Assembly: GCA_963770835.1 (NCBI GenBank)
Contig: CAVYRH010000026.1
Coordinates: 78,811-142,810, forward strand
Length of the DNA stretch: 64,000 nt
Reading direction: 5' to 3'
Origin: an uncultured Pseudomonadota bacterium
GTDB lineage: Bacteria; Oederibacteriota; Muellerivitia; Muellerivitales; Muellerivitaceae
Every line of letters starts with the position of its first letter. The first letter of the stretch is position 1. The notes under the pieces were generated by a model, which had not been told where the DNA came from, made no database searches, and saw only the letters and a program-made list of their open reading frames with translations. Made by a program: the position numbers and the translations under genes. Shown here in pieces: positions 22,462 to 43,072 of this stretch.

Positions 22462-24582
22462 CTACCGGCAAAGGGCCAGAAATTTTTTCAAGTCGTACTT
22501 CGGATCAAACTTCGCCGTGCGCTGGAAGCATTCCTTAGCCCGGTTGAAGTCCCCTTCCTTGACGAGGGCCAGCCCCAAGCGGTGGTAAACGCCCGCGAAT
22601 TTTCGGTCCAGAAAGGGGAAGGACCGGATCGCTTCCACCGGCTGACCCAGCAACCACTGGGCCGGGGTCATATCCGAACTCACCAGCAGGATGTCCAAAC
22701 CCTTTTCCAGGACCCAGCTTTTTAAAAGCGGGTCACTCCCACAGGAAGGATAAAGGGCCCAAAGTTTTTCCAAGACGGGCGTGAAGTCGGGATTTTCCAC
22801 CACATAGGGCATCCCGCCGTAGGCATCCTGCAAAACCTGGTGGACCTCCTTCCATTTGAGGAATATCTTTTGCTCTCCGGGTGAGGTGATGGGAACAAGG
22901 ACCAGGCAAAGAATGGGGCCGTTGGCGGCGGGATCGGATAAAACCTCGGACCGCGCCCGGGGAAACCTTTCTTGAAGGGTCTGGACGTAGTGAAGGTCGG
23001 TGAGGATCGCGGCCCAAGAGGCTTTTTCCGGCTCGAGCCGGGGATTGCGGGCCGCGTTGAAAGGGTAAGTGGACACCAGGAGGGATTGGTCATAGGCATC
23101 GGAAACGAAATCGCTGAAGACAAAACCCGGCCCCTGGCTTTCCTCCGTTTCCCTCAACAATTGAAACGCCCGGTAACGTTCCGGGGATTTGATGTGGATG
23201 CCTGGAACCATATTGGCGGACCATTGGTGAAACACCCCGAACAAGTGATAACTGTCCAAGCCAAGGGACAGGGCCAAGACCAGAAGAAAAAGGCTTTTTC
23301 GGGCGGAGGGTAGGAGGGTGGACAGCAGGATTCCCAGCCCTCCCGCCACCGGCACGAGGCACAAGGGCATAATGAGATCGGTGCGGAAGCATTCCAGGGT
23401 GTTGAAGAAAAAAGCCGGCAGAAACAAAAGACCCAGCGCCGCCCACCACCAGCTCCTCCAAGTTTTTCCCAGGAATCCGCGCCAGGTTCCCAGCCCGGTG
23501 AAAAACAAGGCATCCCAGACGGGATTGAAAAATCCGCCCCAAAGGGGGGCGAAACTCCAATAGGAACGGTCGATGGGGCCCCAAAAGACGGCGGTGAAAT
23601 AAGACAGGATGGACGCTCCTTGACGGTCCCAGGGGGTTCCCTGGCGGCTGAAGACGGAATAAGTAAAGACATGCCCTCCTGCGATATTCTTTAGGAACGC
23701 GGCGTCCATCGGCAGGGACAAAAGCACCGCGGGGAAGAGATAGGCCAGGAAAACTTTCCAACCCAGTCCCGGTTTTTTCCGGCAAGAAAGGTAAACCCCC
23801 GCCGTGACAAGGGCAGCCGGGGCCACAAAAAGCATGGAAGCGTAAAAACTTCCGCCCACGAGGAGGCCCAAAAGGAACGCCCGCCGTCCCGAAAGCCTGG
23901 AAGGAGCTCCCAGGAAAAGGCCCAAGACGCCCAACAGGAGGAATTCCACCACCCATTGGAGCACTCCCAGGTAGGCGTCGAATTTACCGTAGTAAAGGGG
24001 CCAAAAACCAAGGGCCAACAGCGCGGCGTAAAGGAAGGAAAAGGATGAAGGGAAAAAACGGCGGACAGCCCACCATCCCAAAGGCACGGCCAACAGCGAC
24101 AGCAAGGCGGGATAAAGCCACATGGAATAAAGGGAAGGCGCAAAAACCCTGAAGAATCCCCCTTGCAGCCAGGTGAAAAGCGGCATGGTTTTTTCATGGC
24201 CGATCAAAAGGGGCCAAGACCCTTTTTCGCAAAGGCCGATGGCGAAGTAACTGTAATTAGCGTCATCCCATGTCGGCCAGACGGGAACGGAAACCAGGCC
24301 GTAAAGCCTCAGGAACAGCGCCAGGACGCCCAAGACCAAAACCATTCCCCTACCGTTCATTTCCAAGGAAGGGAATGGCTTCTCCGGGTTCACTTTGGCG
24401 AAGGCGGGTGAGAAAAAAACCAATGCCAGCTGCAGCACCAATCCCAGGGGGAAAAGCCAAAATCTCTGCCAGACGGTCCAGGGACCCCAAGCCAACAATG
24501 CGTTCAAACCCATGAGGATGAAAAACCTGGCCCAAATCCTCAGAGCCTCCGGCCGGCCGGTTTCCGCGAACAAGAGGGGCAT
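22462..24582 (-). CDS. GT-C fold glycosyltransferase, PMT/TMTC-like multi-TM domain with C-terminal TPR repeats (paralog 1 of 6)
   Basis: 706 aa; >10 predicted TM segments; first-loop acidic motif VWPTWDDANYSYF (DD/DE of GT39-like enzymes); C-terminal TPR-like helices (...YHRLGLALVKEGDFNRAKECFQRTAKFDPKY). Confidence 0.6.
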   Translation of the reverse strand: MPLLFAETGRPEALRIWARFFILMGLNALLAWGPWTVWQRFWLFPLGLVLQLALVFFSPAFAKVNPEKPFPSLEMNGRGMVLVLGVLALFLRLYGLVSVPVWPTWDDANYSYFAIGLCEKGSWPLLIGHEKTMPLFTWLQGGFFRVFAPSLYSMWLYPALLSLLAVPLGWWAVRRFFPSSFSFLYAALLALGFWPLYYGKFDAYLGVLQWVVEFLLLGVLGLFLGAPSRLSGRRAFLLGLLVGGSFYASMLFVAPAALVTAGVYLSCRKKPGLGWKVFLAYLFPAVLLSLPMDAAFLKNIAGGHVFTYSVFSRQGTPWDRQGASILSYFTAVFWGPIDRSYWSFAPLWGGFFNPVWDALFFTGLGTWRGFLGKTWRSWWWAALGLLFLPAFFFNTLECFRTDLIMPLCLVPVAGGLGILLSTLLPSARKSLFLLVLALSLGLDSYHLFGVFHQWSANMVPGIHIKSPERYRAFQLLRETEESQGPGFVFSDFVSDAYDQSLLVSTYPFNAARNPRLEPEKASWAAILTDLHYVQTLQERFPRARSEVLSDPAANGPILCLVLVPITSPGEQKIFLKWKEVHQVLQDAYGGMPYVVENPDFTPVLEKLWALYPSCGSDPLLKSWVLEKGLDILLVSSDMTPAQWLLGQPVEAIRSFPFLDRKFAGVYHRLGLALVKEGDFNRAKECFQRTAKFDPKYDLKKFLALCR

Positions 24583-24665
24583 GAAGCTATTATTTGAAGG
24601 GGGATTGGGTTTTGCCAGTTAATTTTATTCCAATGGAAGAAATGTGAAGAAGGTAAAATAACCTT

Positions 24666-25619
24666 ATGCCCCATTCCCACGAGCATATGCACAGCCGGGC
24701 CGGCTTTCCCCACGACCATGAACACTCCGAGGGGCATGACCATTCCCACGGCCCCAGCCGCCGCGGCCAGATGCTTTGGGCCATTGGCATCACCGGCTCC
24801 ATCCTGGTCCTGGAAGTCATCGGGGGTTTCCTGTCCCATTCCTTGGCCCTCTTGTCCGACGCGGGCCACATGCTGACCGACCTGGCGGCGCTGCTCATTT
24901 CCTTGGCCGCCATGGTTATGGCCGAAAGGCCGGTCAGCGACCGCCATACATACGGTTTCGCGCGCCTGGAAGTGCTGGCGGCTTTCGGCAACGCCATCAC
25001 CTTCTTCGTCATGGTGGGGGCGGTGGGTTGGGAAGCCTTCCAGCGGCTTTCCACGCCCTCCCTGCCCGAATGTAAAACCATGGGCCTGATCGCCGCCATC
25101 GGGCTTTTGGCCAACATCCTCTCGGCCTGGTTTCTCCACGGGGCCCATGAGGACGATCTGAACATGAAGAGCGCCTGGATCCATGTCATGGGGGACCTGG
25201 CTTCCTCGGTGGGGGTGCTGGTGGGTGTGGCGGTCATCGCCAAGACCGGCTGGACCTGGGTGGACCCGGTCCTCAGTTTGGGAATCGCCGCCTTGATCGC
25301 CCTGAGCGCTTTCAAGCTTTTCTGGAAGGCCCTGCATATTCTTTTAGAGTCGGCCCCAAGGGGGCTGACGCCGGAGAGGATTAGTTCCTGCCTGACATCC
25401 CATATTCCCCAGGTCAAGGAAGTCCACCACGTGCATCTTTGGGAAGTGGGGTCCGGGGAAATCCACCTGACCGCCCATGTGGTGGTGGAGGACCAACCCT
25501 TGAGCCGGGCCCAGGACATCCTGGAACGGGCGGTGAAGGACCTGGAAAGGGAATGCGGCATCCACCACGCTACCCTCCAGCTGGAATCCTCAGGGCGGGA
25601 ACTCAAGGGCAATTCTTGA
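24666..25619 (+). CDS. czcD: Cation diffusion facilitator (CzcD/ZitB-like) metal efflux transporter with His-rich N-terminus
   Basis: HSHEHMH...HDHEHSEGHDHSH tail, 6 TM, CDF signature SLALLSDAGHMLTDL and HVMGDL, C-terminal cytoplasmic domain. Confidence 0.8.
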   Translation: MPHSHEHMHSRAGFPHDHEHSEGHDHSHGPSRRGQMLWAIGITGSILVLEVIGGFLSHSLALLSDAGHMLTDLAALLISLAAMVMAERPVSDRHTYGFARLEVLAAFGNAITFFVMVGAVGWEAFQRLSTPSLPECKTMGLIAAIGLLANILSAWFLHGAHEDDLNMKSAWIHVMGDLASSVGVLVGVAVIAKTGWTWVDPVLSLGIAALIALSAFKLFWKALHILLESAPRGLTPERISSCLTSHIPQVKEVHHVHLWEVGSGEIHLTAHVVVEDQPLSRAQDILERAVKDLERECGIHHATLQLESSGRELKGNS

Positions 25620-25739
25620 CCGACCAACCGAATCTTCGCAGGGTTACAACGTCATCGTTCCGGCAGTCGTTTGACAAAACAATGAACCGGGCGATAATGA
25701 ACAACTAATGAGCCGGCTAATTCATCTTCCATCCTCATT

Positions 25740-26960
25740 TTGAAACTCCGTCTGAAAGGCCCCAAGCCGGTTATGCGAAGAATCCAAATCGTCGACATAA
25801 TCCGGTCCATCAGCATCATCCTTGTTATGGGACAACATTTGTTCCTCGTGATGGGTCAACACTTGCTCCCATCGGGTAGATTCCCCGTCGATAAAATCAG
25901 TTTTTCATTAACCCACTTTTCCATCAATTTTTCCAACGGCCGTTTCGGAGTTGCACTTTTTTTTGTCGTCTCAGGATATTTGATCACTGAAATCATTGTT
26001 GGCCGAAGATTTGAAAACTATAAAGTCAACTTTAAGGATTTTTACACGAAGCGGGTCGCCAGAATTTTCCCGCTTTTTTTTGTGATTATTTTCACCGGAT
26101 GGCTGATGCTTCATTTTTTTAACATCCATACCCCGCTTTTCGAGGATTTTTTTAACCACCGGGATTACAAGTGTGATTCCAAATTTTGGTTTTCCTTGTT
26201 TTTGCTTCTTTTCAACTGGACCGTTTGCCTCAAGGGAGAAGGACTGGGCTGGTTTTGGACCGTTTTGTGGTCGTTGGCGGTTGAAGAACAGTTTTATTTG
26301 TCCTATCCGTGGGTTTTGAAGAAAATAAAAAAACTCAATAATTTGCTGCTTTTTCTTGGTGCCGTCATTTTGGGAGGTTTAATCTATCGGATCGTCCTGA
26401 CCTTATTGGGCTGGGGGGATTATGCTCACGCCGTCGTCACTTCCTTTGGATCCTTCGATCAAATCGCCATAGGTTCCTTGCTTTACTTCGTGTCGGAAAA
26501 ATGGAAAGACGAGTTTGCGGGGAAAAAAAGCCAATGTGCAGTGCTTTGCGCGATCGGGTTGGCCGTCATGTTAACGGCTTACATTAATATGACTTCCTCT
26601 TTCCCGACTTACCTAAATTACGGGGTCATTTTCGGCCCCTTTTTCATTTCGGCAGGATGTTTTTTGTTCCTATTGGGCGGGTTTCACTTGAGATTTTTTG
26701 AGTCGAGATATTTGCGATGGCTTACGATTCCGGGACAATTAAGTTATGGCTGTTATCTTTGGCATTTCTTGGTAATTTTTATGCTGTTTCCTTTTTTAAA
26801 AAATTTAGGCCCCTTTACGGCTTTCATGCTAATAGTCTTGGGGACGGTTCTATTCGCTTATGTGAGTTATGCCATCATTGAAAGGCCCGCGAATCATCTC
26901 ATCCGGAAACGATTCGGCCTTGGAAAAGGAAAATCATTATCGATTCCTGGATTAGGTTAG
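25740..26960 (+). CDS. Acyltransferase family 3 (OafA/YrhL-like) integral membrane O-acyltransferase, low-GC
   Basis: RIQIVDIIRSISIILVMGQH... N-terminus and about 10 TM segments typical of PF01757. GC much lower than neighbours. Internal tandem duplication VMGQHLFLVMGQHLL. Confidence 0.65.
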   Translation: MKLRLKGPKPVMRRIQIVDIIRSISIILVMGQHLFLVMGQHLLPSGRFPVDKISFSLTHFSINFSNGRFGVALFFVVSGYLITEIIVGRRFENYKVNFKDFYTKRVARIFPLFFVIIFTGWLMLHFFNIHTPLFEDFFNHRDYKCDSKFWFSLFLLLFNWTVCLKGEGLGWFWTVLWSLAVEEQFYLSYPWVLKKIKKLNNLLLFLGAVILGGLIYRIVLTLLGWGDYAHAVVTSFGSFDQIAIGSLLYFVSEKWKDEFAGKKSQCAVLCAIGLAVMLTAYINMTSSFPTYLNYGVIFGPFFISAGCFLFLLGGFHLRFFESRYLRWLTIPGQLSYGCYLWHFLVIFMLFPFLKNLGPFTAFMLIVLGTVLFAYVSYAIIERPANHLIRKRFGLGKGKSLSIPGLG

Positions 26961-26999
26961 ACTCGCTTCAATCCGCTTTGTTTTCATGAAGGATCAAAA

Positions 27000-28565
27000 T
27001 TGACCCATTCCTCCCAACAAAGCCGCTTTTGGGCCCTGGCCGTCCTGGGTTTGGCCGGCCTCTTGATCGTTTTGGAACGCTGTCACACCTACTCCGAGCC
27101 CCTCGAAAGGGACATCACCACCTACGCGGTCATTGGCGAGGAACTCCTCAAGGGCCGGTCCCTTTACTCCGACCTTTGGGACCACAAGCCCCCTGCCATC
27201 CACCTGACCTTCGCCCTTGCCGAGGCCGTTGCGGGGGAGGGGCCCCTTTCCATCTATCTCTTAAACGTATTGGCGGCTTTGGCTACCTTGGCGGGGTTAT
27301 ACCGGGCCGGAAAAAGCCTGGGCGGTTTGGCTGGGGGCCTTTGGACGGCGCTGATTTGGGCGGCCGTTTCCGGGGACCTTTACCTGCAGGCCAACCAACC
27401 CAACGAGGAAGTTTTTCTCAATGCTTTTCAAACCTGGGTATTCGTGTTGTGGCTTTCGGCTTCCGTGAAAACTTTCGAACCTCGCCGGTGGGTCCTTATC
27501 GGCATCTTTTCCGCCATCGCTTCCATTTACAAACCCTTCGCGGTTTTGGAAATCCTGTTTCTTGGCGCGGTTTACCTGGTTCTCAACCCCAAATCTTCCC
27601 CAAGAAAAACCGCTTTGCGCCAAGTGGGAACCGCCTTTGCCTGCGTCCTAGCCGCTTGGGTAGTTCTCTTCGGCTGGTTTTCCCTCCAAGGAAGATGGAA
27701 CGACTTCAAGAACGCAGTCTTTACCTACAACGTTTATTACAGCGGTTACCATGACGCCAGTTTCCTGGAGATAGTGCAAAACATCGGAGGCCAGGCGCTG
27801 AATTTCCAAACCCTTGCCTGGCTCTTCCTACTCTTCGCGCTGGGGTGCCTGGGGGCTTTGCTTGGAAAAAGTAAAAAAGAGGAGCGGGAGCCCCGGCTTT
27901 TTTGGGGCGCCTTTTTGGTGGCGGCCGAATTGGAAGTCCTTCTTCCCGGCTGGTTCTTCGCCCATTACGATCAGCTTCTGCTGCCGCCGCTCGTCTTGGG
28001 GGCGTCTTGGGGCATTACCTATTGGGGGGAGTTAATTAAAGATAAAAGATGGAAATGCCTGCCCGGCACCCTCTTGATGGCCTTCCTTATTTTCCATGAG
28101 GCGCCTTTCTACCGGCTCACACCCGAGGAATGGGCGAATAAAAAATATTCGGACGGTCCGCTGTTCATTCAATCCTACCAACTGGGCCGCGAATTGGACG
28201 GGATACTCCAGCCAGGCGAAACCTTCTATGAATGGGGAAATGAATCCGAACTTTATTTCGCCGCCCGCCGTTCCCCGCCCAGCGGGGTTTTTTACAGCTA
28301 CCCTCTCCTGAATAATCCCCTGGCTGGTGAGCTTTCCCAGCGGGTCGTGCGAGATTTGGAAAAGCAAAGGCCCGAGGTCATCGTCTTAGACACGGCTTTT
28401 TACTTCAACGGTAGTTTTATCCAGCACCACCCCATCCTTCAATGGGTCCGGGGGGTCCAGGACCGCTACAAGCCCTTCCCCCAAAACCCCTACCGGAAGC
28501 CTTTCCTCCTGCTGATGCTCAAGGGGGGCAACCTGGAAAAACGGCTGGGGATGAAACAGACCTGA
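27000..28565 (+). CDS. Polytopic membrane protein with C-terminal soluble domain; possibly a GT-C-like glycosyltransferase (uncertain)
   Basis: 521 aa, TTG start, about 9 TM segments in the first 330 aa, YSDLWDHKPP loop motif, hydrophilic C-terminal domain. Embedded in the GT-C array. Confidence 0.35.
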   Translation: MTHSSQQSRFWALAVLGLAGLLIVLERCHTYSEPLERDITTYAVIGEELLKGRSLYSDLWDHKPPAIHLTFALAEAVAGEGPLSIYLLNVLAALATLAGLYRAGKSLGGLAGGLWTALIWAAVSGDLYLQANQPNEEVFLNAFQTWVFVLWLSASVKTFEPRRWVLIGIFSAIASIYKPFAVLEILFLGAVYLVLNPKSSPRKTALRQVGTAFACVLAAWVVLFGWFSLQGRWNDFKNAVFTYNVYYSGYHDASFLEIVQNIGGQALNFQTLAWLFLLFALGCLGALLGKSKKEEREPRLFWGAFLVAAELEVLLPGWFFAHYDQLLLPPLVLGASWGITYWGELIKDKRWKCLPGTLLMAFLIFHEAPFYRLTPEEWANKKYSDGPLFIQSYQLGRELDGILQPGETFYEWGNESELYFAARRSPPSGVFYSYPLLNNPLAGELSQRVVRDLEKQRPEVIVLDTAFYFNGSFIQHHPILQWVRGVQDRYKPFPQNPYRKPFLLLMLKGGNLEKRLGMKQT

Positions 28566-28567
28566 GG

Positions 28568-30730
28568 CTATTTCCCGCCCGCCGGGGACCGGCCCATCGC
28601 ACCGAGGGCCCTCAAGTTTTCCGCGGCGGGGGTGAGGTTCACGGGACAGAGGAGGGCCGCCTCGAAAGCCTTCCGGGCGCCCGGGATATCCCCTTGAAAG
28701 GCCAGGAAAGCCCCCCATTCGTTATAAAAAAAGGCGGTGGGGTACCCTTGCTTCAGCCCTTCGCGCAGGGCCCGCAAGGCGGCGGGGTTATGCCAGGAAC
28801 GGTTCCGGTCGCCATAGGCGTTTTCCCAAACGTGGAACTTGAAGGCCCATTCCCAATAGAGGGATTCCAAGAAGGGGTCGCCCCGGAAAAGGGGCTTCAT
28901 CCCCTCCAATTGAGCGAAGACTTCCCGGCGGTCCCCGTCTTCCGGCACGTTGGCCTCGGTCCAAACCGCATCCCGCAGGGCCGCGTCGGCTCGCCTCCAA
29001 CTTTCCACGGGTTCCCTCCCGCCTTCCCCGGGGGGAAGGATTCCCAAAACCAGGTTTGAGCCCGGGGGTCCCGGATGGGCCGGGTCATACAGATCAACCC
29101 ATCGGCTCGCCACGAAGCGCCGTTCCAAAAAAGGCCGGTAATCGGCGTCCACCACGATCCCCATCCAATGCACCTGTTCCGGCGAAATCTTGGGATTGGC
29201 GGTGGCGTTGAAGACGTAGGTGGCCACCGAAAGATCCGGATTGGGTTCGTGGGGCCGCAGTTCAAAGAGGACGACTCCCGGTCCCTTTTCCCCGGCTTCC
29301 GCTTTCAAGTAAGGGAAGGCCTTTGCGGAGGGGGAGGCGGAAGAGGGGAAAGTCAAAAGAACATGGCGCAGGTCCAACAAAAGGACGATGGGAAGGGCCA
29401 GCCCCAAGGCCCACCAACGGCTCCGGGAAGGCAGGGAGAGCAACAGGCGGCCCGCCCCCATCACCGTCACCAGCAAAAGGACCGGAAGCAACTGCATGTT
29501 CCGGAAAAGGTCGAAATTTTTCGTCAGCATCCCCGGAGTCAAGAGTACCAAAAAAATAACGGCCAAAAGACGGGTCCAGGCCTGGTGCCGGAAGCGCCAG
29601 CATTCCAAGGCCCCTAAAAAAAAACAGGCGCCTTCCAAGGGGTTGAGAACGCCGCCCCAAACCGGCCCGTAGGAATTTTGCAGGTCGCAGCCCCAGAAAA
29701 GCGAGGTGAGGTTGGAAGCGGAATCCGTCCATCGGCGAAGGAGGCTGTCCTGTCCGCCGAAGGTCCATAGCCGGCCCAAATGGGCGCTGTTCCGGAAATG
29801 AAGGGAGGCCCATCCGAACAGGAAGAGGAAGACCAGGACCGGAACCCCATAGGCGATGAGGGGGCCGGCCCAGGGCTTTTTTCCCCGGCTCAATCGAACG
29901 GCCACGATGAAGCTCACCACCAGGGCCAGCACCGGCCAGGAAGTGGAAACCCAAAAACCCAATCCCACGGCCAGGCCCAAAAGGAAAGGCATCCTTCCGC
30001 CCCCTTGGGGTGGATTGGATTTTATCCAAAAGGCGAGGAGAGCCAGGACCAAGAATTCCCAAAAAACCAGTAAGGACATATAGCCGCAGAATTTGCCGGC
30101 ATAAAGGGGCCAAAAACTGAAGGCCATCAGAAGGACGAAGAGGAAGCCGAAGGAAGGGGAAAGGAGCCGGCGTACGAGGACCCAGGATAGCAAAAGGCTC
30201 CCCAAAGAAAAAAGCGCGGGGAAAAGCCAAAGGGAAGTGACGGACGGCGGGACCAGGTGGAAATAAGCCGCCATGATCCAGTTCAACAAGGCGGGGTATT
30301 GGGAATTGCTCAGAAAAAAAACCCAATGCCAATGGTTTAAGAGTTCCACCGAATAGTAAGCCACCCGGCTGTCGTCGAAGGTGGGCCAGTTGCCCGGCAT
30401 CCAGACCATCCCCAGGCGCACCGCGCAGCCCAAGGCCAGGATCAGGAACCAGAGGAATCCTGGAGGGCGATGGAAAATTTCCGGGAAGGGAAGAGACTTT
30501 TCTTTTTTGTCCGTTCCAGGCATGGAATGGAGGGCCAGGACGAAAGGCAAGAGCACCCCCATCAGGAAAATCCATAATCGAAGGGCGAGGCCCATGGGCA
30601 CCCAGGAAAGGACGGCGTTGACGCCTGTGAATACCAGAAAATAAACCCAGGCCTTGGCGGGATAGGATGGATTGAAGAAACCAGTCTTTGGGGTCACTGA
30701 TGGGCGCCTTTTTTTAATTCCCCGGGACAT
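28568..30730 (-). CDS. GT-C fold glycosyltransferase, PMT/TMTC-like with C-terminal TPR (paralog 2 of 6)
   Basis: 720 aa; GNWPTFDDSRVAYYSVELL motif; N-terminal 150 aa about 85% identical to paralog 3 (KTGFFNPSYPAKAWVYFLVFTGVNAVLSWVPMGLALRLW...). Confidence 0.6.
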   Translation of the reverse strand: MSRGIKKRRPSVTPKTGFFNPSYPAKAWVYFLVFTGVNAVLSWVPMGLALRLWIFLMGVLLPFVLALHSMPGTDKKEKSLPFPEIFHRPPGFLWFLILALGCAVRLGMVWMPGNWPTFDDSRVAYYSVELLNHWHWVFFLSNSQYPALLNWIMAAYFHLVPPSVTSLWLFPALFSLGSLLLSWVLVRRLLSPSFGFLFVLLMAFSFWPLYAGKFCGYMSLLVFWEFLVLALLAFWIKSNPPQGGGRMPFLLGLAVGLGFWVSTSWPVLALVVSFIVAVRLSRGKKPWAGPLIAYGVPVLVFLFLFGWASLHFRNSAHLGRLWTFGGQDSLLRRWTDSASNLTSLFWGCDLQNSYGPVWGGVLNPLEGACFFLGALECWRFRHQAWTRLLAVIFLVLLTPGMLTKNFDLFRNMQLLPVLLLVTVMGAGRLLLSLPSRSRWWALGLALPIVLLLDLRHVLLTFPSSASPSAKAFPYLKAEAGEKGPGVVLFELRPHEPNPDLSVATYVFNATANPKISPEQVHWMGIVVDADYRPFLERRFVASRWVDLYDPAHPGPPGSNLVLGILPPGEGGREPVESWRRADAALRDAVWTEANVPEDGDRREVFAQLEGMKPLFRGDPFLESLYWEWAFKFHVWENAYGDRNRSWHNPAALRALREGLKQGYPTAFFYNEWGAFLAFQGDIPGARKAFEAALLCPVNLTPAAENLRALGAMGRSPAGGK

Positions 30731-34809: not shown

Positions 34810-37024
34810 GGTGCCCCTGAAGCCATTGAAGGAGGGCGGCGGGGGGCGGATTTTGCGGTTCCAACCTGCGGCATTGCTGGAAGTCCCAAAGAGCCTGCCG
34901 GTAATTTTTTTGGTCCATTTCCAATTGGGCCAGGTAGCGGTAAAACTTCGGCGACTCATAACCCGTTTGGAGGGCGGAATGAAACAAGAGGAGGGCCTGC
35001 CGCTCATCGTGTTTAAGGTCCCTTTCGTCCTCCCCCAGCCTTTCCAAAAAATAACCCTTCCGCCACCGCAGGGCCGGGTCCAAACCACAAACCCGGATTT
35101 CCTCCCTCAGGCATTGCATGGCTTCCTCTTGGGGGATCTTGTCCATTAAATCCGCTAATTTTTCCCAATAACAAGACTCCAGGAAAGTGTCACCTTGAAA
35201 AGAGCCCCGGCATGACTTCAAGCTTTCCACGGCCGGCCCGTAGTCCGGGTTCGCGATGTGGTAAGGCATCAAGCCGAAAAGGCCCTGGATTTGGCGGTGG
35301 GCTTCCAGCCATTTTTGGAGCACCGGAGCGGCTTGGCTGTCCAAAGGTAAGAGGAACAAAACCAGGTTGCCTTCCAATGCCGGCAATCCATCGAAGAGCG
35401 GGTAGTTTTGGGAACGGGGGAAGCGGCGGGCGAAGTAGGACCGGAAGGAATCATCGGCCAGGACCGCGGCCCAATGGGCTTTTTGCGGGTCGAGAGCCGG
35501 GTTTCTCGCGGCGTTAAAGGGATAGGTTGAAATCAGGAGGGATTGGTCAAAAATATTGGGCACGAACTCGGTGAGGATCAATCCGGGACCTTCCCTGGCC
35601 TGGACCAGGTCCAGGATCTGGAAAGCGCGGTACCTTTCGGGTGATTTCGAATCGTTGGAATGGGCGCCCGGAACGGCCCACTGATGGTAGGGAAAACCCA
35701 AGTGGCAAAGGTCCAGGCCGGCGGAAAAGCTGGCGGAAAGGACCAGTGCCATGATTCGGCGGCGCTTGGGAAACGCCAGGAGCCATCTCCTCCATCCTAC
35801 GGCGGCCACCACCACCGCCAGGGGCAGGAGGGGTAGGATGCGCATGACCTCGACGTTGGCGGAAAGAACGCCGGGCAGTAGCCCCAACGCCAGGAGCCCT
35901 ACCGTCCCGAAAAAGAAAAATTTCCGGCGATTCCCGAAAATCTCCACGATCCCCAATAAAAAGGCCGCGCCGAGGATGGGATTGAAAAAGCCACCCCAAA
36001 GTGGCCCAAAATTAAAATAGGATTTGTCGACCGTTCCCCACAGCAAGGCCGTGACATAAGAGAAAGAGACCGACAGTTGATGGAGGGAAAGGGGCTGGGA
36101 GAAAATGAGGTAATGCTGTACGTGACCCGCCAGGACATTCCGGAAAATCCCAAGGGAAATCGGCAGGGCCAGGAGAAGAACCGGCAGGGCAAAAGCCAAA
36201 ACCGGCCCCCATCGTCCTGGCTTTTCCCGCAAGGTCTTCCGCAAAGCCCCAACACTTAACACGAAGATAACCGGAATGGACAGTATCCAAACATATAAAC
36301 CTGAACCGAGCCCCAAGCCCAATCCCAAGGCGGTAAAAATCCGGTTTTTTCCGGGGCGGCTTTGAAGGAAAAGCGCGAAGAGGCCCAGACAAAGGCATTC
36401 CCAAGCCGTGAACAATACCATGATTTGACAGAAGGTGCCCAGGAAGAGGGGCCAAAAGCTGAAAGCCAGGATCAAGGCGCAAAAAAAAGAAAGGGATTTG
36501 GAAAAATACCTCCGACAGGCCCAGTAGCCCGCCAACAAGACCAGGATGGACAATAAGCCGGGAAAAAACCAAAGGGAAAAAAGCGAGGGGGGAAACAGCC
36601 TGTAAAACAACGCCAACATCCAAAAAAAGAGGGGCGGATCGGATTCAGAGGAATAAAAGAGCTGCCAGTGCCAATGTTGCGCTTGGCCAATGGAATAATA
36701 GCTGCTGAGGGCGTCGTCCCACATGGGCCAAACCAAGAGGGGGCGCGAGAAACACAACCTCAGCGCGGCCGCGCCCCCCCAAAACACGACCCAAAACCAA
36801 GCCGGGAAGGAAGCGGGGAAATCCCGCCCCTTCCATGGTCCGGCTGTTTTGAAAGCTAAAGCCAAAGGAAGCAGGATTCCCAAGACGCCCACACAGCATT
36901 TCGTGGGAAGACCCGATGGGAGGTAAGCCAGGAAAAAATTGACTGCCAGGAAAATCCCCAAATAGGCACGGGGGTCGTAGGGACGTCGAAGCAGCTGTTG
37001 AATCCTATTTTCGGGGGAGTTCAC
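34766..37024 (-). CDS. GT-C fold glycosyltransferase, PMT/TMTC-like with C-terminal TPR (paralog 4 of 6)
   Basis: 752 aa; VWPMWDDALSSYYSIGQ motif; C-terminal TPR-like region (NYRQALWDFQQCRRLEPQNP). Confidence 0.6.
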   Translation of the reverse strand: MNSPENRIQQLLRRPYDPRAYLGIFLAVNFFLAYLPSGLPTKCCVGVLGILLPLALAFKTAGPWKGRDFPASFPAWFWVVFWGGAAALRLCFSRPLLVWPMWDDALSSYYSIGQAQHWHWQLFYSSESDPPLFFWMLALFYRLFPPSLFSLWFFPGLLSILVLLAGYWACRRYFSKSLSFFCALILAFSFWPLFLGTFCQIMVLFTAWECLCLGLFALFLQSRPGKNRIFTALGLGLGLGSGLYVWILSIPVIFVLSVGALRKTLREKPGRWGPVLAFALPVLLLALPISLGIFRNVLAGHVQHYLIFSQPLSLHQLSVSFSYVTALLWGTVDKSYFNFGPLWGGFFNPILGAAFLLGIVEIFGNRRKFFFFGTVGLLALGLLPGVLSANVEVMRILPLLPLAVVVAAVGWRRWLLAFPKRRRIMALVLSASFSAGLDLCHLGFPYHQWAVPGAHSNDSKSPERYRAFQILDLVQAREGPGLILTEFVPNIFDQSLLISTYPFNAARNPALDPQKAHWAAVLADDSFRSYFARRFPRSQNYPLFDGLPALEGNLVLFLLPLDSQAAPVLQKWLEAHRQIQGLFGLMPYHIANPDYGPAVESLKSCRGSFQGDTFLESCYWEKLADLMDKIPQEEAMQCLREEIRVCGLDPALRWRKGYFLERLGEDERDLKHDERQALLLFHSALQTGYESPKFYRYLAQLEMDQKNYRQALWDFQQCRRLEPQNPPPAALLQWLQGHLSPSGKVLNGSGTP

Positions 37025-37065
37025 CCGGGGATTTTACCTAAAAAAACAAGCCCCCATGGTGGATT

Positions 37066-37425
37066 TCAGGCCGAACAGGCCTCAAGCCATTGGGAAAGGT
37101 GCCGGTCGATGCCGCTCAAGCGCTTAGCCCAGCGGTCATGGAGCTCGGTCGAGAGCAGGTTTTTCCTCAGGCAAAGGCTCATCAAGGGGACGCACTCGTG
37201 GGTCATAGCCAGGGCCTGCTCCAGGAATTTCCCGGTGCGGGCCGGGCTCTTCGAATCCTTTGCTTTTTGGACGGCCTGGGAAAGTTCGTGGACCTGGCGT
37301 TTCAGGCGCGAGACAGCCTCGTGCTTCAAGGCCCAGGGGAGGTTCTGGTAGGTCTTGTTGATCTCCCCGGCCAGGTCGTCGCAGAGGGCGGGAATGTTCA
37401 CATTCAAGTAATCCGATGACGCCAT
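37066..37425 (-). CDS. Small hypothetical all-helical protein between GT-C paralogs
   Basis: 119 aa, predicted helical, no TM segment; position conserved inside the co-oriented array. Confidence 0.35.
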   Translation of the reverse strand: MASSDYLNVNIPALCDDLAGEINKTYQNLPWALKHEAVSRLKRQVHELSQAVQKAKDSKSPARTGKFLEQALAMTHECVPLMSLCLRKNLLSTELHDRWAKRLSGIDRHLSQWLEACSA

Positions 37426-37450
37426 AGGCTTTCCTCCCCTTCTGGGATGG

Positions 37451-39565
37451 TTACGGCGAAAGATAACCAGCGGCTTGGGTCAGGTTCAAGGGAGCCCGCA
37501 TGGCCTTTTCGAAGGCCCGCCGGGCCTCCTGGGGGTGCTGTTCCATCAGTTCCAGCGCACCCAAATGGAAATAAAGATGGGCCGATGGCACCTCCCCCCG
37601 AACCGCCTGTTCCAAGGCTTCCCGGGCCTCTTCCAAGAGCTTTCCACGGTCTTCCACCCGGGCTTCGAACGAGAACTTCAGGTAAAGATCCGACATTTTC
37701 TCCCAATAAAAGGAATTTAAAAAGGGATCGGTTTTGAAAAAGGGATAGGCTTCCCGCAAGGCCTGAAGGGTTTCCTCCCCGTCCTCACCGGAGAGGCGGC
37801 CCAGGCTTTTATCAATAAACGGTTTCAACGAAGCTGAGGCCTTTCCATATTGCTCCAGGAGTTTCGGGCCGAAAGAGTCCGTGGGACAAACCCAGAGCAT
37901 CCATCCCCCGTCAGGGGGAAGGGGCGCGGGGGAAAGGACGTAAGCCTTGGCTTGGGGAAACCGCCGGGCCAGGAAAGGGCGGTCGTTGACGTTGGCTAGG
38001 AAGGCCACCCAATGGGCATCGGAGGCGTGAAGCGCGGGGTTCTGGGCCGCGTTATAGGAATAGGACGCCACCGTCAGCGTCTGGTCGGGGAGGCCCGGCA
38101 CGAAATCAGAAAAGATCACACCGGGGCCTTGTTCCTCTTTTATTTTTTCCAGCAGGCCGTAGGCCCGGTAACGCTCGATGGATTTGGCCCAACCCCTCCA
38201 ATTGTCCACATCGTTCCACAAGCGGCCGTAGATCCCGTACAAGTGAAAGGAATCCAGGGACCCTGAAAGGAGGAGGAGGCCCAAAACAACCGCCATCGCC
38301 CTATTCTTGGGGAAGCGGCCCAGCCAGGCGGCCATCCCAAGGGAAGCCATCCCGAAGAGGATGGGGATGACCGGCACCATGCGGAAAGTTTCCCGGTCCG
38401 AGGTGGCCATGGCTGGCAGCACAAAAAAAATCAGGCACGCCAAGAGCCAACGGTAAAGCCCCTCTTTTCGCCTTTTCCAGGATTCCAGCAGTCCGAGGAG
38501 AAAAAGACTCCCCAATAGGGGGTTCAGCAGTCCCCCCCAGACCGGTTGGTAGGTATGAAAGCGGGGGTCCATGCCCCAAAAGAGGGACGAAAGATAAGAA
38601 AGGGAAACGGCCCATTGATTGGAAGCCGAAAAGTCCCCATGGGAAACGAGGCCTAGGACAAAGCGGCCATATCCATCGAGAAAAACCCCGATCACTATCG
38701 GCAAGCCTAAGAGGGCGCAGGGTCCCAGGAACCAAAAAAAAGCCGCTCTTTCATCCGGCCCAGCCCGCGGCTTCAACCAAGCCAGAACCAGGGTTAAAAA
38801 TACCACCGCCGCCACGATCGGCCAATGGATATGAATCCAAAAACCCAGGCCCGTGGCCGCTCCCAGCATGGCCCCCGCCCGCTTGCGATCCTCCGCATGG
38901 CGGCTCTTCAAGGCGAGGCCCAAAAGCCAGAGGACCAGCGCTTCCCATGTCAGGACCAGGCCGGTCATAAAAGAAAAACGCCCCAGCAACGCGGGCCAAA
39001 AGCCCAGGGCGGTAAAAGCGGTAACGCAGAAGGCAAGGGAACGGGAAAAATACTGGCGTGAAGCGCCATAGGCCAGGGGAATGGCGGCCAGGGAAATGAA
39101 AGCAGGGAAAATCCAAAGGGATAACAGGGAAGAACCGAAGATTTTTAAAAAAAGGGCCAAGCCCCAGATGTAAAAGGGCGGCACCCGGCTGCCACCGTAA
39201 AAAAGACGCCAGGTCCAATGCTCGTCGAGGTTCAAGGCGTAATAACCGTAAACCCCTTCATCATAATGGGGCCAAACCGAGAGGGTGGTGAGCTGGAAAA
39301 ACCGGAGGAAGACAGCCCCTAAAGCCAGAAAAATCCAAACCCAAAAGGGTACCGGCGGAAGAAATTCCTTTTGAAGCAGGTCTTTCGAATCGGATTGAGA
39401 GGGTAAGTAAAAAAAGGCAAACCCGAAAGGCAGGAGGATGCCGAAAAGGCCGATCCAGAGTTTCGCTTCCAAGGAAAAGGAGAAATAGGAAAGAAGGGTA
39501 TTGGCGGCCAGGAATATCCCGAAATAAATCCAAGGGCGGAAGCGGGGAAGCCGCTGGGGGTTCAA
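37451..39565 (-). CDS. GT-C fold glycosyltransferase, PMT/TMTC-like with C-terminal TPR (paralog 5 of 6)
   Basis: 704 aa; VWPHYDEGVYGYYALNL (DE motif); TPR-like C-terminus (HLYFHLGALELMEQHPQEARRAFEKAMRAP); ATGA overlap with upstream paralog 6. Confidence 0.6.
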   Translation of the reverse strand: MNPQRLPRFRPWIYFGIFLAANTLLSYFSFSLEAKLWIGLFGILLPFGFAFFYLPSQSDSKDLLQKEFLPPVPFWVWIFLALGAVFLRFFQLTTLSVWPHYDEGVYGYYALNLDEHWTWRLFYGGSRVPPFYIWGLALFLKIFGSSLLSLWIFPAFISLAAIPLAYGASRQYFSRSLAFCVTAFTALGFWPALLGRFSFMTGLVLTWEALVLWLLGLALKSRHAEDRKRAGAMLGAATGLGFWIHIHWPIVAAVVFLTLVLAWLKPRAGPDERAAFFWFLGPCALLGLPIVIGVFLDGYGRFVLGLVSHGDFSASNQWAVSLSYLSSLFWGMDPRFHTYQPVWGGLLNPLLGSLFLLGLLESWKRRKEGLYRWLLACLIFFVLPAMATSDRETFRMVPVIPILFGMASLGMAAWLGRFPKNRAMAVVLGLLLLSGSLDSFHLYGIYGRLWNDVDNWRGWAKSIERYRAYGLLEKIKEEQGPGVIFSDFVPGLPDQTLTVASYSYNAAQNPALHASDAHWVAFLANVNDRPFLARRFPQAKAYVLSPAPLPPDGGWMLWVCPTDSFGPKLLEQYGKASASLKPFIDKSLGRLSGEDGEETLQALREAYPFFKTDPFLNSFYWEKMSDLYLKFSFEARVEDRGKLLEEAREALEQAVRGEVPSAHLYFHLGALELMEQHPQEARRAFEKAMRAPLNLTQAAGYLSP

Positions 39566-41703
39566 GGCTTCCGCTCCATAGGGGCGGCGGGTGAAAGCTG
39601 GGCCAAAAGCAATCGGGATTCGGTGAAATCCAAGGGAGCCCGGACCGCTTCCTGGAAGAATTGATGGGCCTTGGGAGGATCGTTTAAGGCCAGTTGGAGA
39701 ACCCCCAACCGGTAAAACAAGTGGGCGGCGGGATAACCCGAATGGACCGCCTGTTCCAGGGCTTCCACGGCATCGTTCATTTTACCGGCCTTGACCGAAA
39801 GGTCCGCCATTTTTTCCCAATAGCAGGTCTCCAGGAAGGAATCCTTTTGAAAAAGGCCATGCACCGCGAGAAGGAAAGGACGGACTTTCTCCAGGGGGTC
39901 GCCGCTGTTGTAGTTCAAATTTTGAAGGTAGGCGTCGATGAAGCCGTCCAGGGTCTGGTCCGCCTCCCGCCATTCCAAAAAGACGGGACGGTTGGCCGGG
40001 GAAAGGGGAACCAGCCATAGCATCAAACCGCCGTCCGGGGGATGGAGGTCCTTCGAGAGCCAGTAACTTTTGCCGGGGCCGAAACGCTTGACCAGGAAGG
40101 GCTGCTCGTTCACGTTGGCCAAAACGGCGGCCCACCGGGCCGATCCGGGGTCCAACTTCGGATTAGAAACGGCGTTGAATCCGTAGTCGGCGATATCCAA
40201 TGTCTGGTCACAGCTGCCCGCCGGGAAATCGGAAAAAACCAAACCGGGGCCCTCGGCCCGGGCTTGGGCCTTGAGGACGCCAAATGCGCGGTAATAATTA
40301 ATGGATTTTGTGAATTTCAACCAATAAGCCGGATCATCCCAGACCCGATGGAGGGGTCCGGCCAAGTGGAAAAAATCCAGTCCAAAGGATAATGCCAAGA
40401 GCGCGCCTAAAAGGAGCAAGGGATGCCGGTAGGGGGGCAGGGAAACCACTAAACGGGCCAGGCCCAGGGCCGCCAGCGGCACGGTGATGACGGCGGCGGC
40501 GGCGATGCGGAAAGTTTCGGAGTCATGGCTTAACATCCCCGGAAGCAACAAGAAGAGGAACGCCGCCACCAGCCAACGTCCCAGTGGAGTTCCGGACCGG
40601 ATTGCCTCCAGGAAACCGCAAAAAACGCAGGATCCTAAAACCGGATTTAAGAACCCTCCCCAAATTGGCTGGAAAGTGTAGTACGAAAGCGGCAGTCCCC
40701 AAAAAACGGCGCTCCAATACGAAAGGGAGACTTCCATCCGGTGCCACGAGAGGGGGGACCCTTGATGGGTCCAAAGCATTTGAAGGTAGGGCGGCAATCC
40801 AGCGCGTCCTAGGTGGACCAGAAACGGCAGGATGACCGCGGCTAAAGACAGGCCGAAAGCCAGCGGCACCCAAGGTGACCGCCGGAAAGCCCACGCGACG
40901 GTCAGCCCTACCAGCAGCGCCACCGCCATCCACTGGAAATAAACGGCGTAAAAAGTCAGGCCGACAGCCAATCCCAAAAGAAGGGCCGCAGCCATCCTTG
41001 GGCGGGGCCGGGCCGCGCGGAACAAGAGGGCCAGCGGGATCAAGACAGCTGTTTCCACAAGGGGGATGAGGCATACGAAGCTGGCGAAGCGCCCGATGTA
41101 CCAAAACCAAAAGCCCAAAGCCCCTAGAGCCGCGCAAAGAAAGGAAAAGGACCTGGAGAAGTTCCATTGGCGGCAGGCAAGGTAAGCCAGGGGCGGGAAG
41201 CCCAGGGAAAAAATCAGGGGCGAGGACCACAAGCTCCCAATGGAAGGCCCCTCCAGCCTAAAGCAAAGGCTGAGCCACCATTGGTAAAAAGGAGGATGCT
41301 GGGCGCCGCTGTACAAAAGCCGGTCAATTCCCATCCGCATGATCCGCAGGGCGTAGAAGCCCACGATGCCCTCGTCCGAATGGGGCCACACGAAAAGGCC
41401 CATCAGTTTATAACCGCGAACGAAAATGGCCAGAGCTGCGACAAGGACCCAAACCCAAGGAGGCACCGCCGGCAGGAATTCCTGGAAGTAGAGCGGTTTT
41501 CCGGAGGGGCCTGGAACATAGGTTTTCCATGCCACGAAAAAAAGCAATAGGAGGCCGGGCAGGCCGGTCCAAAGTTTGGTTTCCAAGGGCAGGGGGGCGT
41601 AAGAAAGAAGGAGATTGGCGGCAAAGGTAATGAAGAAGTAAGCCCAGGGATGGTAGGAAAAGAAAAAGGCCTTAAAGGGGGGAAGTTTCAACATCGGAAC
41701 CAT
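39562..41703 (-). CDS. GT-C fold glycosyltransferase, PMT/TMTC-like with C-terminal TPR (paralog 6 of 6)
   Basis: Start taken at internal Met (MVPMLKLPPF...) one nucleotide downstream of the hpnE stop. The ORF-track start at 41841 would overlap hpnE by 137 nt. VWPHSDEGIVGFYALRI motif; TPR-like C-terminus. Confidence 0.55.
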   Translation of the reverse strand: MVPMLKLPPFKAFFFSYHPWAYFFITFAANLLLSYAPLPLETKLWTGLPGLLLLFFVAWKTYVPGPSGKPLYFQEFLPAVPPWVWVLVAALAIFVRGYKLMGLFVWPHSDEGIVGFYALRIMRMGIDRLLYSGAQHPPFYQWWLSLCFRLEGPSIGSLWSSPLIFSLGFPPLAYLACRQWNFSRSFSFLCAALGALGFWFWYIGRFASFVCLIPLVETAVLIPLALLFRAARPRPRMAAALLLGLAVGLTFYAVYFQWMAVALLVGLTVAWAFRRSPWVPLAFGLSLAAVILPFLVHLGRAGLPPYLQMLWTHQGSPLSWHRMEVSLSYWSAVFWGLPLSYYTFQPIWGGFLNPVLGSCVFCGFLEAIRSGTPLGRWLVAAFLFLLLPGMLSHDSETFRIAAAAVITVPLAALGLARLVVSLPPYRHPLLLLGALLALSFGLDFFHLAGPLHRVWDDPAYWLKFTKSINYYRAFGVLKAQARAEGPGLVFSDFPAGSCDQTLDIADYGFNAVSNPKLDPGSARWAAVLANVNEQPFLVKRFGPGKSYWLSKDLHPPDGGLMLWLVPLSPANRPVFLEWREADQTLDGFIDAYLQNLNYNSGDPLEKVRPFLLAVHGLFQKDSFLETCYWEKMADLSVKAGKMNDAVEALEQAVHSGYPAAHLFYRLGVLQLALNDPPKAHQFFQEAVRAPLDFTESRLLLAQLSPAAPMERKP

Positions 41704-41704
41704 T

Positions 41705-43072
41705 TTAGGGTCTTCGCGAAAGATATTCCCGAACTTTTTCCGCGGCGCGGTGGCCCGAAAGGCAGGCGCCTTCCAGGGTGGCGGGAAGGCCCGTGTTGGT
41801 CCAGTCCCCGGCCAGGAAGACATTGGGGTAGGGCGTTTCACAAGGCGGGCGGAGCCTGTCCGTTTCCTTGTTCCAAACGAAAGTGGCGGCCATTTCCCGC
41901 GTGGCCTTGGAATAAAGCACGGAAGCCCCAGCGGCCGCGGGACACTTCGCCCGCAATTCCACCAAGGCCAAGTCCACCAGTTCAGGGTCCTTCAAGCGGC
42001 CCAGGTCTTCCGCTGCGCTGGCCGTAAAGCTCAAGTATTGGCCTTGCCCCTTCCAAGACCAATTGGCGTTGCGGTTGAAAACCCACTCGAACCTGGCGCC
42101 CGAAAGCCCGACGAGATGGCCTTCCATGACCGGCTTGGAAAGGATGACGTGGACGGAAACAATGGGGGATTTTCCCATTTTGGAGAAATGGGAGGTTGTT
42201 TCCCAAGTCCCGGCGGGCCAAAGGGCGGAGAGGGAAGTGGGCGGCACGGCGAAAACGAGGGCATCGCCGGGATAAACGGCACCAGAACGGGTTTTAATTT
42301 CAAATACTCCCTCTTTAACAGTGAATTCCTGGACCCCCTCATGAAAAAGAACCCGCCCCCCTTTTGCTTCCAGGCACTTCCGGGCTTTTTCCGAAACCAG
42401 GTCGCCCAGGGGGAACCGAGCGATCCCTAAGGCGCTGTCCCGGCGGTTCCCGAAGAAGACCCGGTGAAGCACCTCGCCCAGGCCCAGGAGGGGCGCGACG
42501 GCGGGGGGAACGTTCATGACACTATCGCAAAGGGGCACCCAAAAGCGCTCGCGGGAGTGCGGGCCCTGGCCGGTGGTATCGAGGAACTGCGCCACGGTTT
42601 CCGCGCCCGACGGAATCCGAAAAGGTTTTTTCGAGAAAGCCGAAAGGGCCTTCGACATGGAAATTTTTTCCTTCCATGGAAAAGCGTTGGAAGTGAGGAG
42701 ACCCCAAACCAGATGGAAAGGAGCGGGCAGGGGGGCGCATTTCAGCGAGACTTTTTTCCCGCCAGAAGTGAGCCAGGAAAGGGCCAGGGGATCAATCCAA
42801 TGGAAGGCGCCGTTCATCCCGATTCGCTCCAGCATCCGGAGGGTTTCGGCGTAGCAACCCATGAAAAGATGGGGGCCGTTGTCCATGGGCGCGGGGAAGG
42901 TTTCGGAGGCCGGGATGGAATAGGCCCGGCCGCCCAGGGAGCCGCGGGACTCCAGGAGGTCCACGGAAATACCCTCTTCGGCCAGGGCCGTGGCGGCGGC
43001 GATCCCGGCATATCCCCCTCCCACGACGATCACTTTTCCCATCAACGAACTATCCCTTTCCAAAGCCAGCAA
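41705..43072 (-). CDS. hpnE: Hydroxysqualene dehydroxylase (amine-oxidase/phytoene-desaturase family)
   Basis: GKVIVVGGGYAGIAAATALAEEG FAD fold, C-terminal FLAGDWTNTGLPATLEGACLSG; third gene of a canonical hpnC-D-E triad. Confidence 0.75.
   Translation of the reverse strand: MLALERDSSLMGKVIVVGGGYAGIAAATALAEEGISVDLLESRGSLGGRAYSIPASETFPAPMDNGPHLFMGCYAETLRMLERIGMNGAFHWIDPLALSWLTSGGKKVSLKCAPLPAPFHLVWGLLTSNAFPWKEKISMSKALSAFSKKPFRIPSGAETVAQFLDTTGQGPHSRERFWVPLCDSVMNVPPAVAPLLGLGEVLHRVFFGNRRDSALGIARFPLGDLVSEKARKCLEAKGGRVLFHEGVQEFTVKEGVFEIKTRSGAVYPGDALVFAVPPTSLSALWPAGTWETTSHFSKMGKSPIVSVHVILSKPVMEGHLVGLSGARFEWVFNRNANWSWKGQGQYLSFTASAAEDLGRLKDPELVDLALVELRAKCPAAAGASVLYSKATREMAATFVWNKETDRLRPPCETPYPNVFLAGDWTNTGLPATLEGACLSGHRAAEKVREYLSRRP

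Follow-up and report, generated by a model that had tools for sequence, protein, structure and literature searches.

We analysed a 64,000-nucleotide genome stretch from a soil bacterium assigned to the uncultured phylum FCPU426 (contig CAVYRH010000026.1 of assembly GCA_963770835.1; hereafter the window), in which the squalene biosynthesis genes hpnC, hpnD and hpnE adjoin an array of large membrane proteins. Within 19 kb the array encodes eight proteins with the GT-C glycosyltransferase fold, which fall into three unrelated sequence families: six paralogs (G1 to G6) and two further proteins, M7 and M8. Loci fetched for comparison carry L numbers; L001 is the corresponding contig of a sister strain. 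The genes between 22.4 and 44.8 kb, together with the adjoining addA, are listed below with their strongest Pfam or NCBIfam matches (TPR, tetratricopeptide repeat).

43903..44772, minus strand: hpnC, squalene synthase HpnC (NCBIfam TIGR03464, 292 bits against a cut-off of 250)
43042..43881, minus strand: hpnD, presqualene diphosphate synthase (top NCBIfam match TIGR03465 HpnD, 195.6 bits, under the equivalog cut-off of 278.6)
41705..43072, minus strand: hpnE, hydroxysqualene dehydroxylase (NCBIfam TIGR03467, 373 bits against a cut-off of 283; also called in L001)
39562..41703, minus strand: G6, GT-C paralog, 713 aa, motif WPHSDE (TPR_16, 28.6 bits; no PMT_2 match in Pfam)
37451..39565, minus strand: G5, GT-C paralog, 704 aa, motif WPHYDE, TTG start (PMT_2, 25.6 bits)
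37066..37425, minus strand: h4, four-helix-bundle protein, 119 aa (weak matches to 23S_rRNA_IVP, 23 bits, and Avd)
34766..37024, minus strand: G4, GT-C paralog, 752 aa, motif WPMWDD, the protein modelled here (PMT_2, 39.3 bits)
33148..34809, plus strand: M8, polytopic protein of 553 aa with a GT-C fold, convergent with G4 and overlapping its 3' end by 44 nt (no Pfam or NCBIfam match)
30694..32874, minus strand: G3, GT-C paralog, 726 aa, motif WPTWDD (PMT_2, 26.9 bits)
28568..30730, minus strand: G2, GT-C paralog, 720 aa, motif WPTFDD (PMT_2, 19.3 bits, under the cut-off)
27000..28565, plus strand: M7, GT-C protein of 521 aa from a separate family (PMT_2, 36.5 bits against 26.1)
25740..26960, plus strand: AT3, acyltransferase-3, low GC content of 0.42 (Acyl_transf_3, 94.4 bits against a gathering score of 31)
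24666..25619, plus strand: CDF (ZitB-like) metal-efflux transporter (Cation_efflux, 144 bits; TIGR01297, 273 bits)
22462..24582, minus strand: G1, GT-C paralog, 706 aa, motif WPTWDD, between CDF and addA (TPR_2, 25 bits, sub-threshold)
18749-22456, plus strand: addA, from the gene list of the region

An initial annotation, made from the DNA letters, had proposed that the locus holds six paralogous PMT/TMTC-like glycosyltransferases with TPR tails, functionally coupled to squalene synthesis. All six open reading frames (ORFs) are present where it placed them; the array end that it reported, 41841, is that of the maximal ORF, and the public gene call starts G6 at the ATG at 41703. The six proteins align end to end at 29-60% identity with BLASTP E values from 1e-60 to 0, a similarity far above chance. 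G2 and G3 are 60% identical, and G2 is a recent duplicate of G3. The low-GC acyltransferase-3 gene was recovered as described, as was the small helical protein (h4, a weakly matching Avd-like four-helix bundle); the CDF gene, which also lies inside the array, had been omitted. For the squalene genes, hpnC and hpnE exceed their NCBIfam cut-offs and the gene order is canonical, with hpnD between them. HpnD is the best match for the middle gene too, although its score stays under the cut-off. The start of hpnE is likely at 43042, where it would overlap the hpnD stop by 1 nt.

The family to which G1-G6 belong could not be named from existing models. PMT_2 (PF13231; ArnT/GT39/GT83-type, gathering threshold 26.1 bits) was the only Pfam glycosyltransferase model matched: G4 and G3 score over the threshold, G5 and G2 under it, and G1 and G6 have no match. 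PF02366, MIR and PMT_4TMC were unmatched by the paralogs even at E<=1, and the Pfam search gave no match to DUF1736. Lacking PF02366, MIR and DUF1736, the family therefore lies outside PMT and TMTC. NCBIfam returned no meaningful match for any of the eight GT-C proteins, its ArnT equivalog models included. Sequence searches of PDB chains with G4 and with the family profile retrieved TPR proteins only and no GT-C enzyme, so the catalytic domain was not placeable by sequence alone. The literature searched held no description of the family or of a GT-C/hpnCDE association.

Structure prediction placed it. An AlphaFold (AF2) model of G4, built from 40 family sequences, was confident (pLDDT 91.1, pTM 0.90); its closest folds are ALG12 and ArnT, with ArnT ranked first by Foldseek (E 1.6e-6). 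Given the confidence of the model and ArnT as its top match, the N-terminal domain does have the GT-C fold, and motif conservation agrees with the acidic first loop that had been proposed. The six paralogs are thus members of the GT-C superfamily by fold and motif. The model has 13 transmembrane (TM) helices, the last ending near residue 443, and two of them precede the usual first GT-C helix (75-97). Directly after that helix, W99-P100-x-x-D103-D104 opens the first loop helix. A mixed alpha/beta domain of about 155 residues (approximately 445-600) then separates the membrane domain from the TPR part, which is formed by six to seven tail helices (residues 613-739).

The motif is strongly conserved. 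All the variants reported earlier (WPTWDD, WPTFDD, WPMWDD, WPHYDE and WPHSDE) were found, and W99, P100 and D103 (G4 numbering) are invariant across the six paralogs. Among 115 family representatives with 25-40% identity to G4, D103 is kept in 113 and position 104 is acidic (Asp or Glu) in every one; R395 is kept in 114, and position 392 is acidic in 106. The retention of the acidic pair and R395 in nearly all of these diverse members indicates active enzymes, and the alternative that the paralogs are inactive scaffolds was rejected on this ground. Every loop predicted to be cytoplasmic is rich in Arg and Lys (RR, RPGKNR, RKTLREKPGR, NRRK, KRRR). By positive-inside counting the N-terminus would be cytoplasmic, which would put the loop with the motif, and everything C-terminal of the membrane domain, in the periplasm.

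The C-terminal TPR region of the initial annotation is real but short. The family profile matches consensus TPR proteins at profile positions 664-728 only, equivalent to about 1.5-2 canonical repeats, and Pfam gave single TPR matches to the paralogs, every one under its gathering score; we count two to three TPRs. The alpha/beta domain, predicted to be periplasmic, had been overlooked. The suggestion in the initial annotation that six divergent TPR domains would mean six acceptor specificities was overstated. Divergence among the six paralogs is about equal in all domains (mean identity 32-39%); across the whole family, conservation is lowest in the TPR tail.

This architecture invites comparison with protein O-glycosylation systems. 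In a TMTC/PMT-like battery each paralog would use a polyprenyl-phosphate donor to put a sugar on Ser/Thr residues of its own set of proteins in the periplasm or outer membrane, which its TPR tail would bind. Like TMTC1-4 (GT105) and PMT/POMT (GT39), the paralogs belong to the GT-C/PMT clan and bear a conserved DD/DE pair within the first loop on the lumenal or periplasmic side; as in TMTC, they end in a TPR region that faces away from the cytoplasm (PMC7801869). PMT_2 as the sole Pfam glycosyltransferase match favours such a role, and the weak family-wide conservation of the tail would fit a specificity function. However, TMTC proteins have a DUF1736 loop between TM7 and TM8, 11 TM helices and 8-10 C-terminal TPRs (PMC7801869), whereas the paralogs have 13 TM helices, two to three TPRs and an added alpha/beta domain. 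With PF02366, MIR, PMT_4TMC and DUF1736 missing and ALG12 and ArnT as the nearest folds, the proposed PMT/TMTC-like membership had to be abandoned. Moreover, the substrates of ALG12 and ArnT are lipid-linked glycan and lipid A, respectively, the companion genes here and in related loci are glycan-modifying (AT3, WbqC, DegT, FdtA and Wzy_C), and the TPR part of the six paralogs is no more divergent than their catalytic core. We regard protein O-glycosylation as possible, although it is not the explanation that we favour.

ArnT, the undecaprenyl-phosphate-L-Ara4N:lipid A transferase (GT83; PDB 5EZM/5F15), is another counterpart. It shares with the paralogs approximately 13 TM helices, an acidic residue opening the first periplasmic loop and a C-terminal periplasmic alpha/beta domain, and the marginal PMT_2 similarity of the paralogs is a further point of likeness. 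The resemblance is at the level of the fold only, since the paralogs differ from ArnT by two extra N-terminal TM helices, the TPR tail, the many copies per genome, the lack of an NCBIfam ArnT match and the lack of an arn operon context. If they nevertheless worked as ArnT does, each paralog would attach its own type of sugar, cationic or neutral, to lipid A or the lipopolysaccharide (LPS) core, tuning the charge of the outer membrane. The shared 13 helices and periplasmic domain fit this proposal, and DegT aminotransferase and GT2 genes near some arrays recall ArnB and ArnC. We consider it unlikely: the NCBIfam ArnT model is unmatched, ArnT has no TPR tail, six to eight enzymes would be many for lipid A decoration, and neither arnA, arnB, arnC nor arnA-like genes were found in the 64-kb window.

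A third group of enzymes offers an analogy in concept. The lumenal ALG12/ALG9/ALG3 enzymes of the endoplasmic reticulum (ER) and the mycobacterial Aft/Emb/PimE enzymes are likewise sets of several distinct GT-C proteins. At the non-cytoplasmic face, every enzyme of such a set extends a growing glycan by a single sugar or linkage, for which a polyprenyl-phosphate monosaccharide is the donor. The paralogs share just 11-14% identity with them, and those enzymes are without an alpha/beta domain and TPR tail. By analogy with the ALG and Aft/Emb systems, the paralogs may act sequentially.

The remaining GT-C proteins of the array are of separate descent as far as can be detected. Profile-profile comparison of the six-paralog family with M8 gave no detectable homology (probability 4%), and BLAST found no similarity between M7 and G4; the array therefore contains three types of GT-C protein that are not recent relatives of each other. 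M8 carries an invariant N-D-D behind its TM1, beginning with N24-D25, and only 15 homologs were found in a word-indexed search of 5.8 billion proteins. Homologs of M7 recur in related arrays (L004, L048, L049 and L052).

Other cargo varies between close relatives. AT3 lies on a 1.4-kb indel (25633-27037) that is missing from L001, a contig otherwise 97% identical to the window, and is strain-variable cargo. Its relatives (34-41% identity) occur at other positions in L049, L052, L055, L057, L060 and L063, the copy in the L049 array being 41% identical. Around the indel, between 23368 and 32900, identity to the sister strain falls to 83-87% (CDF, M7, G2) and 96% (G3); elsewhere L001 is 99-100% identical to the window at the protein level, and AT3 is present in the window only. 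The pattern resembles that of a tract of recombination or exchange with the AT3 indel at its centre. In other genomes, WbqC, methyltransferase, hexapeptide-transferase, PhyH and DegT genes form a block in the interior of the L011 array, DegT, GT2, FdtA and hexapeptide genes adjoin the L048 array, and L044 contains a sulfatase-family membrane protein. Cargo of these types is typical of modified amino-sugar and surface-polysaccharide synthesis.

The paralogs belong to a sizeable family that has gone unnamed. A word-indexed protein search returned 39 relatives, all unnamed or annotated 'hypothetical protein'; at E<=1e-30, an exhaustive search with the family profile yielded 634 representatives (clusters at 50% identity), of which the top 150 are all about 700 aa long and matched end to end. 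A scan of one genome per GTDB species, seeded with the six-paralog alignment, located 42 loci in 20 metagenome-assembled genomes (MAGs). This distribution is phyletically restricted: most of the MAGs are titled 'candidate division FCPU426', an uncultured rare-biosphere phylum of soil and peat (PMC10434106), and the remainder are labelled 'uncultured bacterium', 'bacterium' or 'uncultured proteobacterium'. Two loci of the last kind, L009 (MFD09286.bin.2.44) and L013 (MFD05512.bin.2.30), have an FCPU426-type arrangement and an hpnC 73-78% identical to that of the window, and the 'proteobacterium' label of these MAGs is probably wrong. A hidden Markov model of the family detected 92 ORFs in the first 45 loci.

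In a neighbour-joining tree the window paralogs fall into different clades together with orthologs from other genomes: G5 with L004, L009 and L013, G6 with L013, G4 with L004, G1 with L007, and G3 with L004 with G2 as sister. The paralogy is therefore genuine, as had been claimed, and also old and maintained. Family copies also occur dispersed, without nearby hpn genes, in L002 (three copies and an ABC transporter), L046 and others. A second conserved FCPU426 locus (L012, L014, L016, L021, L022, L028 and L032; e.g. L012:6111-17164) carries one or two copies flanked by a ~990-aa Wzy_C (O-antigen-ligase-like)-TPR protein and a type II dehydroquinase, with an OmpA/FlgD_ig/TPR protein on the opposite flank and a YfhO-like protein close by.

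Near hpnCDE the gene order is recurrent. In eight of the loci seeded with the family (L007, L009, L010, L011, L013, L041, L044 and L049) it runs hpnC-hpnD-hpnE, family copies, h4, CDF (minus strand) and AddA (minus strand). To remove seeding bias we scanned metagenome contigs with an hpnE alignment, taking as FCPU426-type loci those with at least 44% hpnE identity and at least 1 kb of downstream sequence (n=24). A family member lies beside hpnE in 19 of these 24 loci. Where hpnE came from other lineages (<40% identity), five loci offered downstream sequence, and none of them has a family member. In about 20 loci, counting those seeded with the family, the first copy starts approximately -60 to +110 nt from the hpnE stop on the same strand. 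Synteny between hpnCDE and the family in relatives was thus confirmed.

The content of this slot is far less constant than its borders. The number of family copies ranges from 0 to 6, and in the five FCPU426-type loci with none (L052, L065, L068, L070 and L071) hpnE is followed by AT3, h4, CDF or AddA. The frame itself is fixed, with hpnCDE on one side and h4, CDF and AddAB on the other; h4 belongs to it in almost all related loci, its homologs being placed correspondingly in at least 20, and the placement of CDF beside AddA is conserved in relatives. The CDF gene is part of this conserved downstream frame and stands outside glycosylation. The frame consists of stable elements and the GT-C genes are variable cargo. 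Variable surface-polysaccharide loci such as O-antigen clusters likewise sit between conserved flanking genes, and the slot resembles them in its fixed position, in a glycosyltransferase, acyltransferase and amino-sugar gene content that is highly variable between relatives, and in the strain-level indel and local tract of divergence at the island. It differs in that its cargo is dominated by GT-C proteins rather than cytoplasmic GT-A/GT-B enzymes, wzx, wzy and ABC export genes are not in the window, and the cargo has become part of the presumed hpnCDE transcription unit.

The junctions were inspected at nucleotide level. The stop codon of hpnE (TAA, 41707-41705) and the ATG of G6 (41703-41701) are separated by a 1-nt spacer, where a start/stop overlap had been reported; similarly, the supposed ATGA overlap at 39562-39565 reads TTGA at the G6/G5 junction, G5 starting with TTG. 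The same-strand run with tight spacing is nonetheless as described, in the order hpnC-hpnD-hpnE-G6-G5-h4-G4. A single transcription unit is possible for this run of about 10 kb but not for the whole array, as the rest forms four further units on alternating strands (M8; G3-G2; CDF-AT3-M7; G1). Consensus promoter and terminator scans of the locus performed no better than on shuffled sequence and were uninformative, so these units are read from strand and spacing. The arrangement suggests that the first island genes are co-transcribed with hpnCDE, and they are probably translationally coupled as well. A repeat search within the array found repeats derived from paralogy only, and no invertible or phase-variation elements.

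The close association with hpnCDE raises the question of whether squalene-derived lipids are the target. In such a scheme the GT-C enzymes would glycosylate, and AT3 acylate, hopanoid polyol head groups or other triterpenoids in the periplasm, the fusion with hpnCDE reflecting a single pathway. The operon-like linkage to hpnE in 19 of 24 loci, at hpnE identities of 45-75%, speaks for this, as do family copies between hpnD and hpnE (L013, L081) and AT3 genes between hpnC and hpnD (L052, L060); the literature searched contained no characterised system of the kind. On the other side, hpnCDE is kept in the five loci with zero copies, many family copies are found at sites away from any hpn genes, and neither shc, hpnH nor another hopanoid gene was found in the 64-kb window. 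An ORF with the DxDDTA motif of squalene-hopene cyclase (SHC) was absent from 1.2 Mb comprising the window and the fetched loci, a search that covers these stretches. The known hopanoid glycosyltransferases HpnI and HpnB are cytoplasmic GT-A enzymes, which also counts against the scheme.

Because CDF and AddAB are equally conserved neighbours yet functionally unrelated, gene order alone is no proof of a shared pathway. The functional coupling to squalene synthesis in the initial annotation is accordingly not upheld, given five loci with hpnCDE and zero copies and a copy number of 0-6. A recurrent order combined with such copy-number variation points instead to a variable surface-decoration locus rather than a squalene-dependent pathway, and we think a role in squalene-lipid decoration improbable. 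The specific proposal that the GT-C battery and recurrent AT3 decorate hopanoid polyol head groups or a new triterpenoid glycolipid is more of a long shot still. If true, it would explain the fusion into and interleaving with hpnCDE across FCPU426, would make these the first GT-C enzymes with triterpenoid lipids as substrates, and could identify a possible source of the unusual composite bacteriohopanepolyols of peat and soil.

Taken together, the results lead us to favour, at roughly even odds (a probability of about 0.5), the explanation that the slot houses a lineage-specific island, variable in copy number, whose GT-C transferases face the periplasm, depend on polyprenyl-phosphate sugars and decorate a glycan or glycolipid of the envelope, with AT3 as O-acylating enzyme and the first genes co-transcribed with hpnCDE. 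By analogy with ArnT, ALG and Aft/Emb, the donor would be a polyprenyl-phosphate-sugar flipped to the periplasmic face. The invariant Asp (D103) would activate the acceptor hydroxyl, the conserved region of R395 and E392 would handle phosphate or a metal, and the alpha/beta and TPR module might pick the acceptor or a partner protein. As acceptor we envisage a cell-envelope glycan or glycolipid, LPS-like or another surface polysaccharide. The sugars or linkages added would differ among the various paralogs and the unrelated M7 and M8, and acyltransferase-3 enzymes would O-acylate the glycan product. The linkage to hpnCDE may serve to co-regulate membrane-lipid and surface-glycan synthesis, and squalene would not be a substrate.

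An envelope-glycan context is favoured by the recurrent AT3 genes, the sugar-gene blocks of L011 and L048, and the Wzy_C-TPR/OmpA-TPR locus. A 1181-aa protein encoded at 8345-11890 (plus strand) of the window ends in an autotransporter beta-domain (163 bits), which indicates a diderm envelope with an outer membrane.

Several observations weigh against envelope-glycan decoration. Neither a GT2 polyprenyl-phosphate-sugar synthase nor a flippase was found in the window, and a Pfam screen of 131 neighbours of dispersed copies showed no enrichment of GT2, GtrA or flippases, the Wzy_C/OmpA/dehydroquinase locus being its sole yield. Since the usual ligands of TPR modules are proteins, the tail speaks for protein acceptors or partners. 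The hpnE-GT-C junction is tight and recurrent, closer than a neutral neighbourhood predicts, so that a tie to squalene lipids is possible; the family and AT3 genes inserted within hpnCDE tell in the same direction, and the uninformative promoter and terminator scans also count on this side.

FCPU426 has massively expanded an undescribed GT-C family, whose members have two extra TM helices ahead of the GT-C core and, behind it, an alpha/beta domain followed by a short TPR tail, and M8 represents a second GT-C-fold family missed by Pfam and NCBIfam. Both families are annotated 'hypothetical protein' and therefore merit profile models of their own. The turnover of content between close relatives at this hot spot points to an elaborate, variable surface glycan assembled in the periplasm, and assembly of glycans in the periplasm or ER lumen is a strategy best known from mycobacteria and eukaryotes. 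An unusual feature is the operon fusion with squalene synthesis, which recurs and offers a handle on co-regulation of, or a chemical link between, triterpenoid lipids and surface glycan.

Other features of the window lie on either side of the array. Beyond it, just upstream of hpnC, an ORF of the MIP/aquaporin family (45290-45808, minus strand; 87 aa in the public call) covers MIP model positions 120-224 only, the C-terminal half, and is probably a truncated gene. It is followed at 46192-47214 (plus strand) by an ArsS-type radical SAM protein of arsenosugar biosynthesis (TIGR04167, 428 bits), which adjoins a carboxymuconolactone-decarboxylase-family (CMD-domain) gene called in L001 (535-867).

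On the opposite side, the spacer between addB and addA (17000-18900) has a low GC content (0.41). Within it the addA 5' end (18746-18879) is duplicated over 134 nt (17734-17867) at 80% identity, and an unannotated 209-aa ORF (16902-17531) precedes this copy. A 23-nt palindromic hairpin, CCTTCTCCC-N4/5-GGGAGAAGG, is present in three copies against 0.01 expected (14551-14573, 19573-19595 and 20897-20919), all inside coding sequence, either of addB or of addA. Both of those in addA lie in 45-nt arms that are 93% complementary, at Pro/Gly/Arg-rich peptide inserts (HPHPDLLPSREKGK; SPSPLRGEGRDEG), and the hairpins look like elements of the repetitive extragenic palindromic (REP) or miniature inverted-repeat transposable element (MITE) kind inserted in frame.

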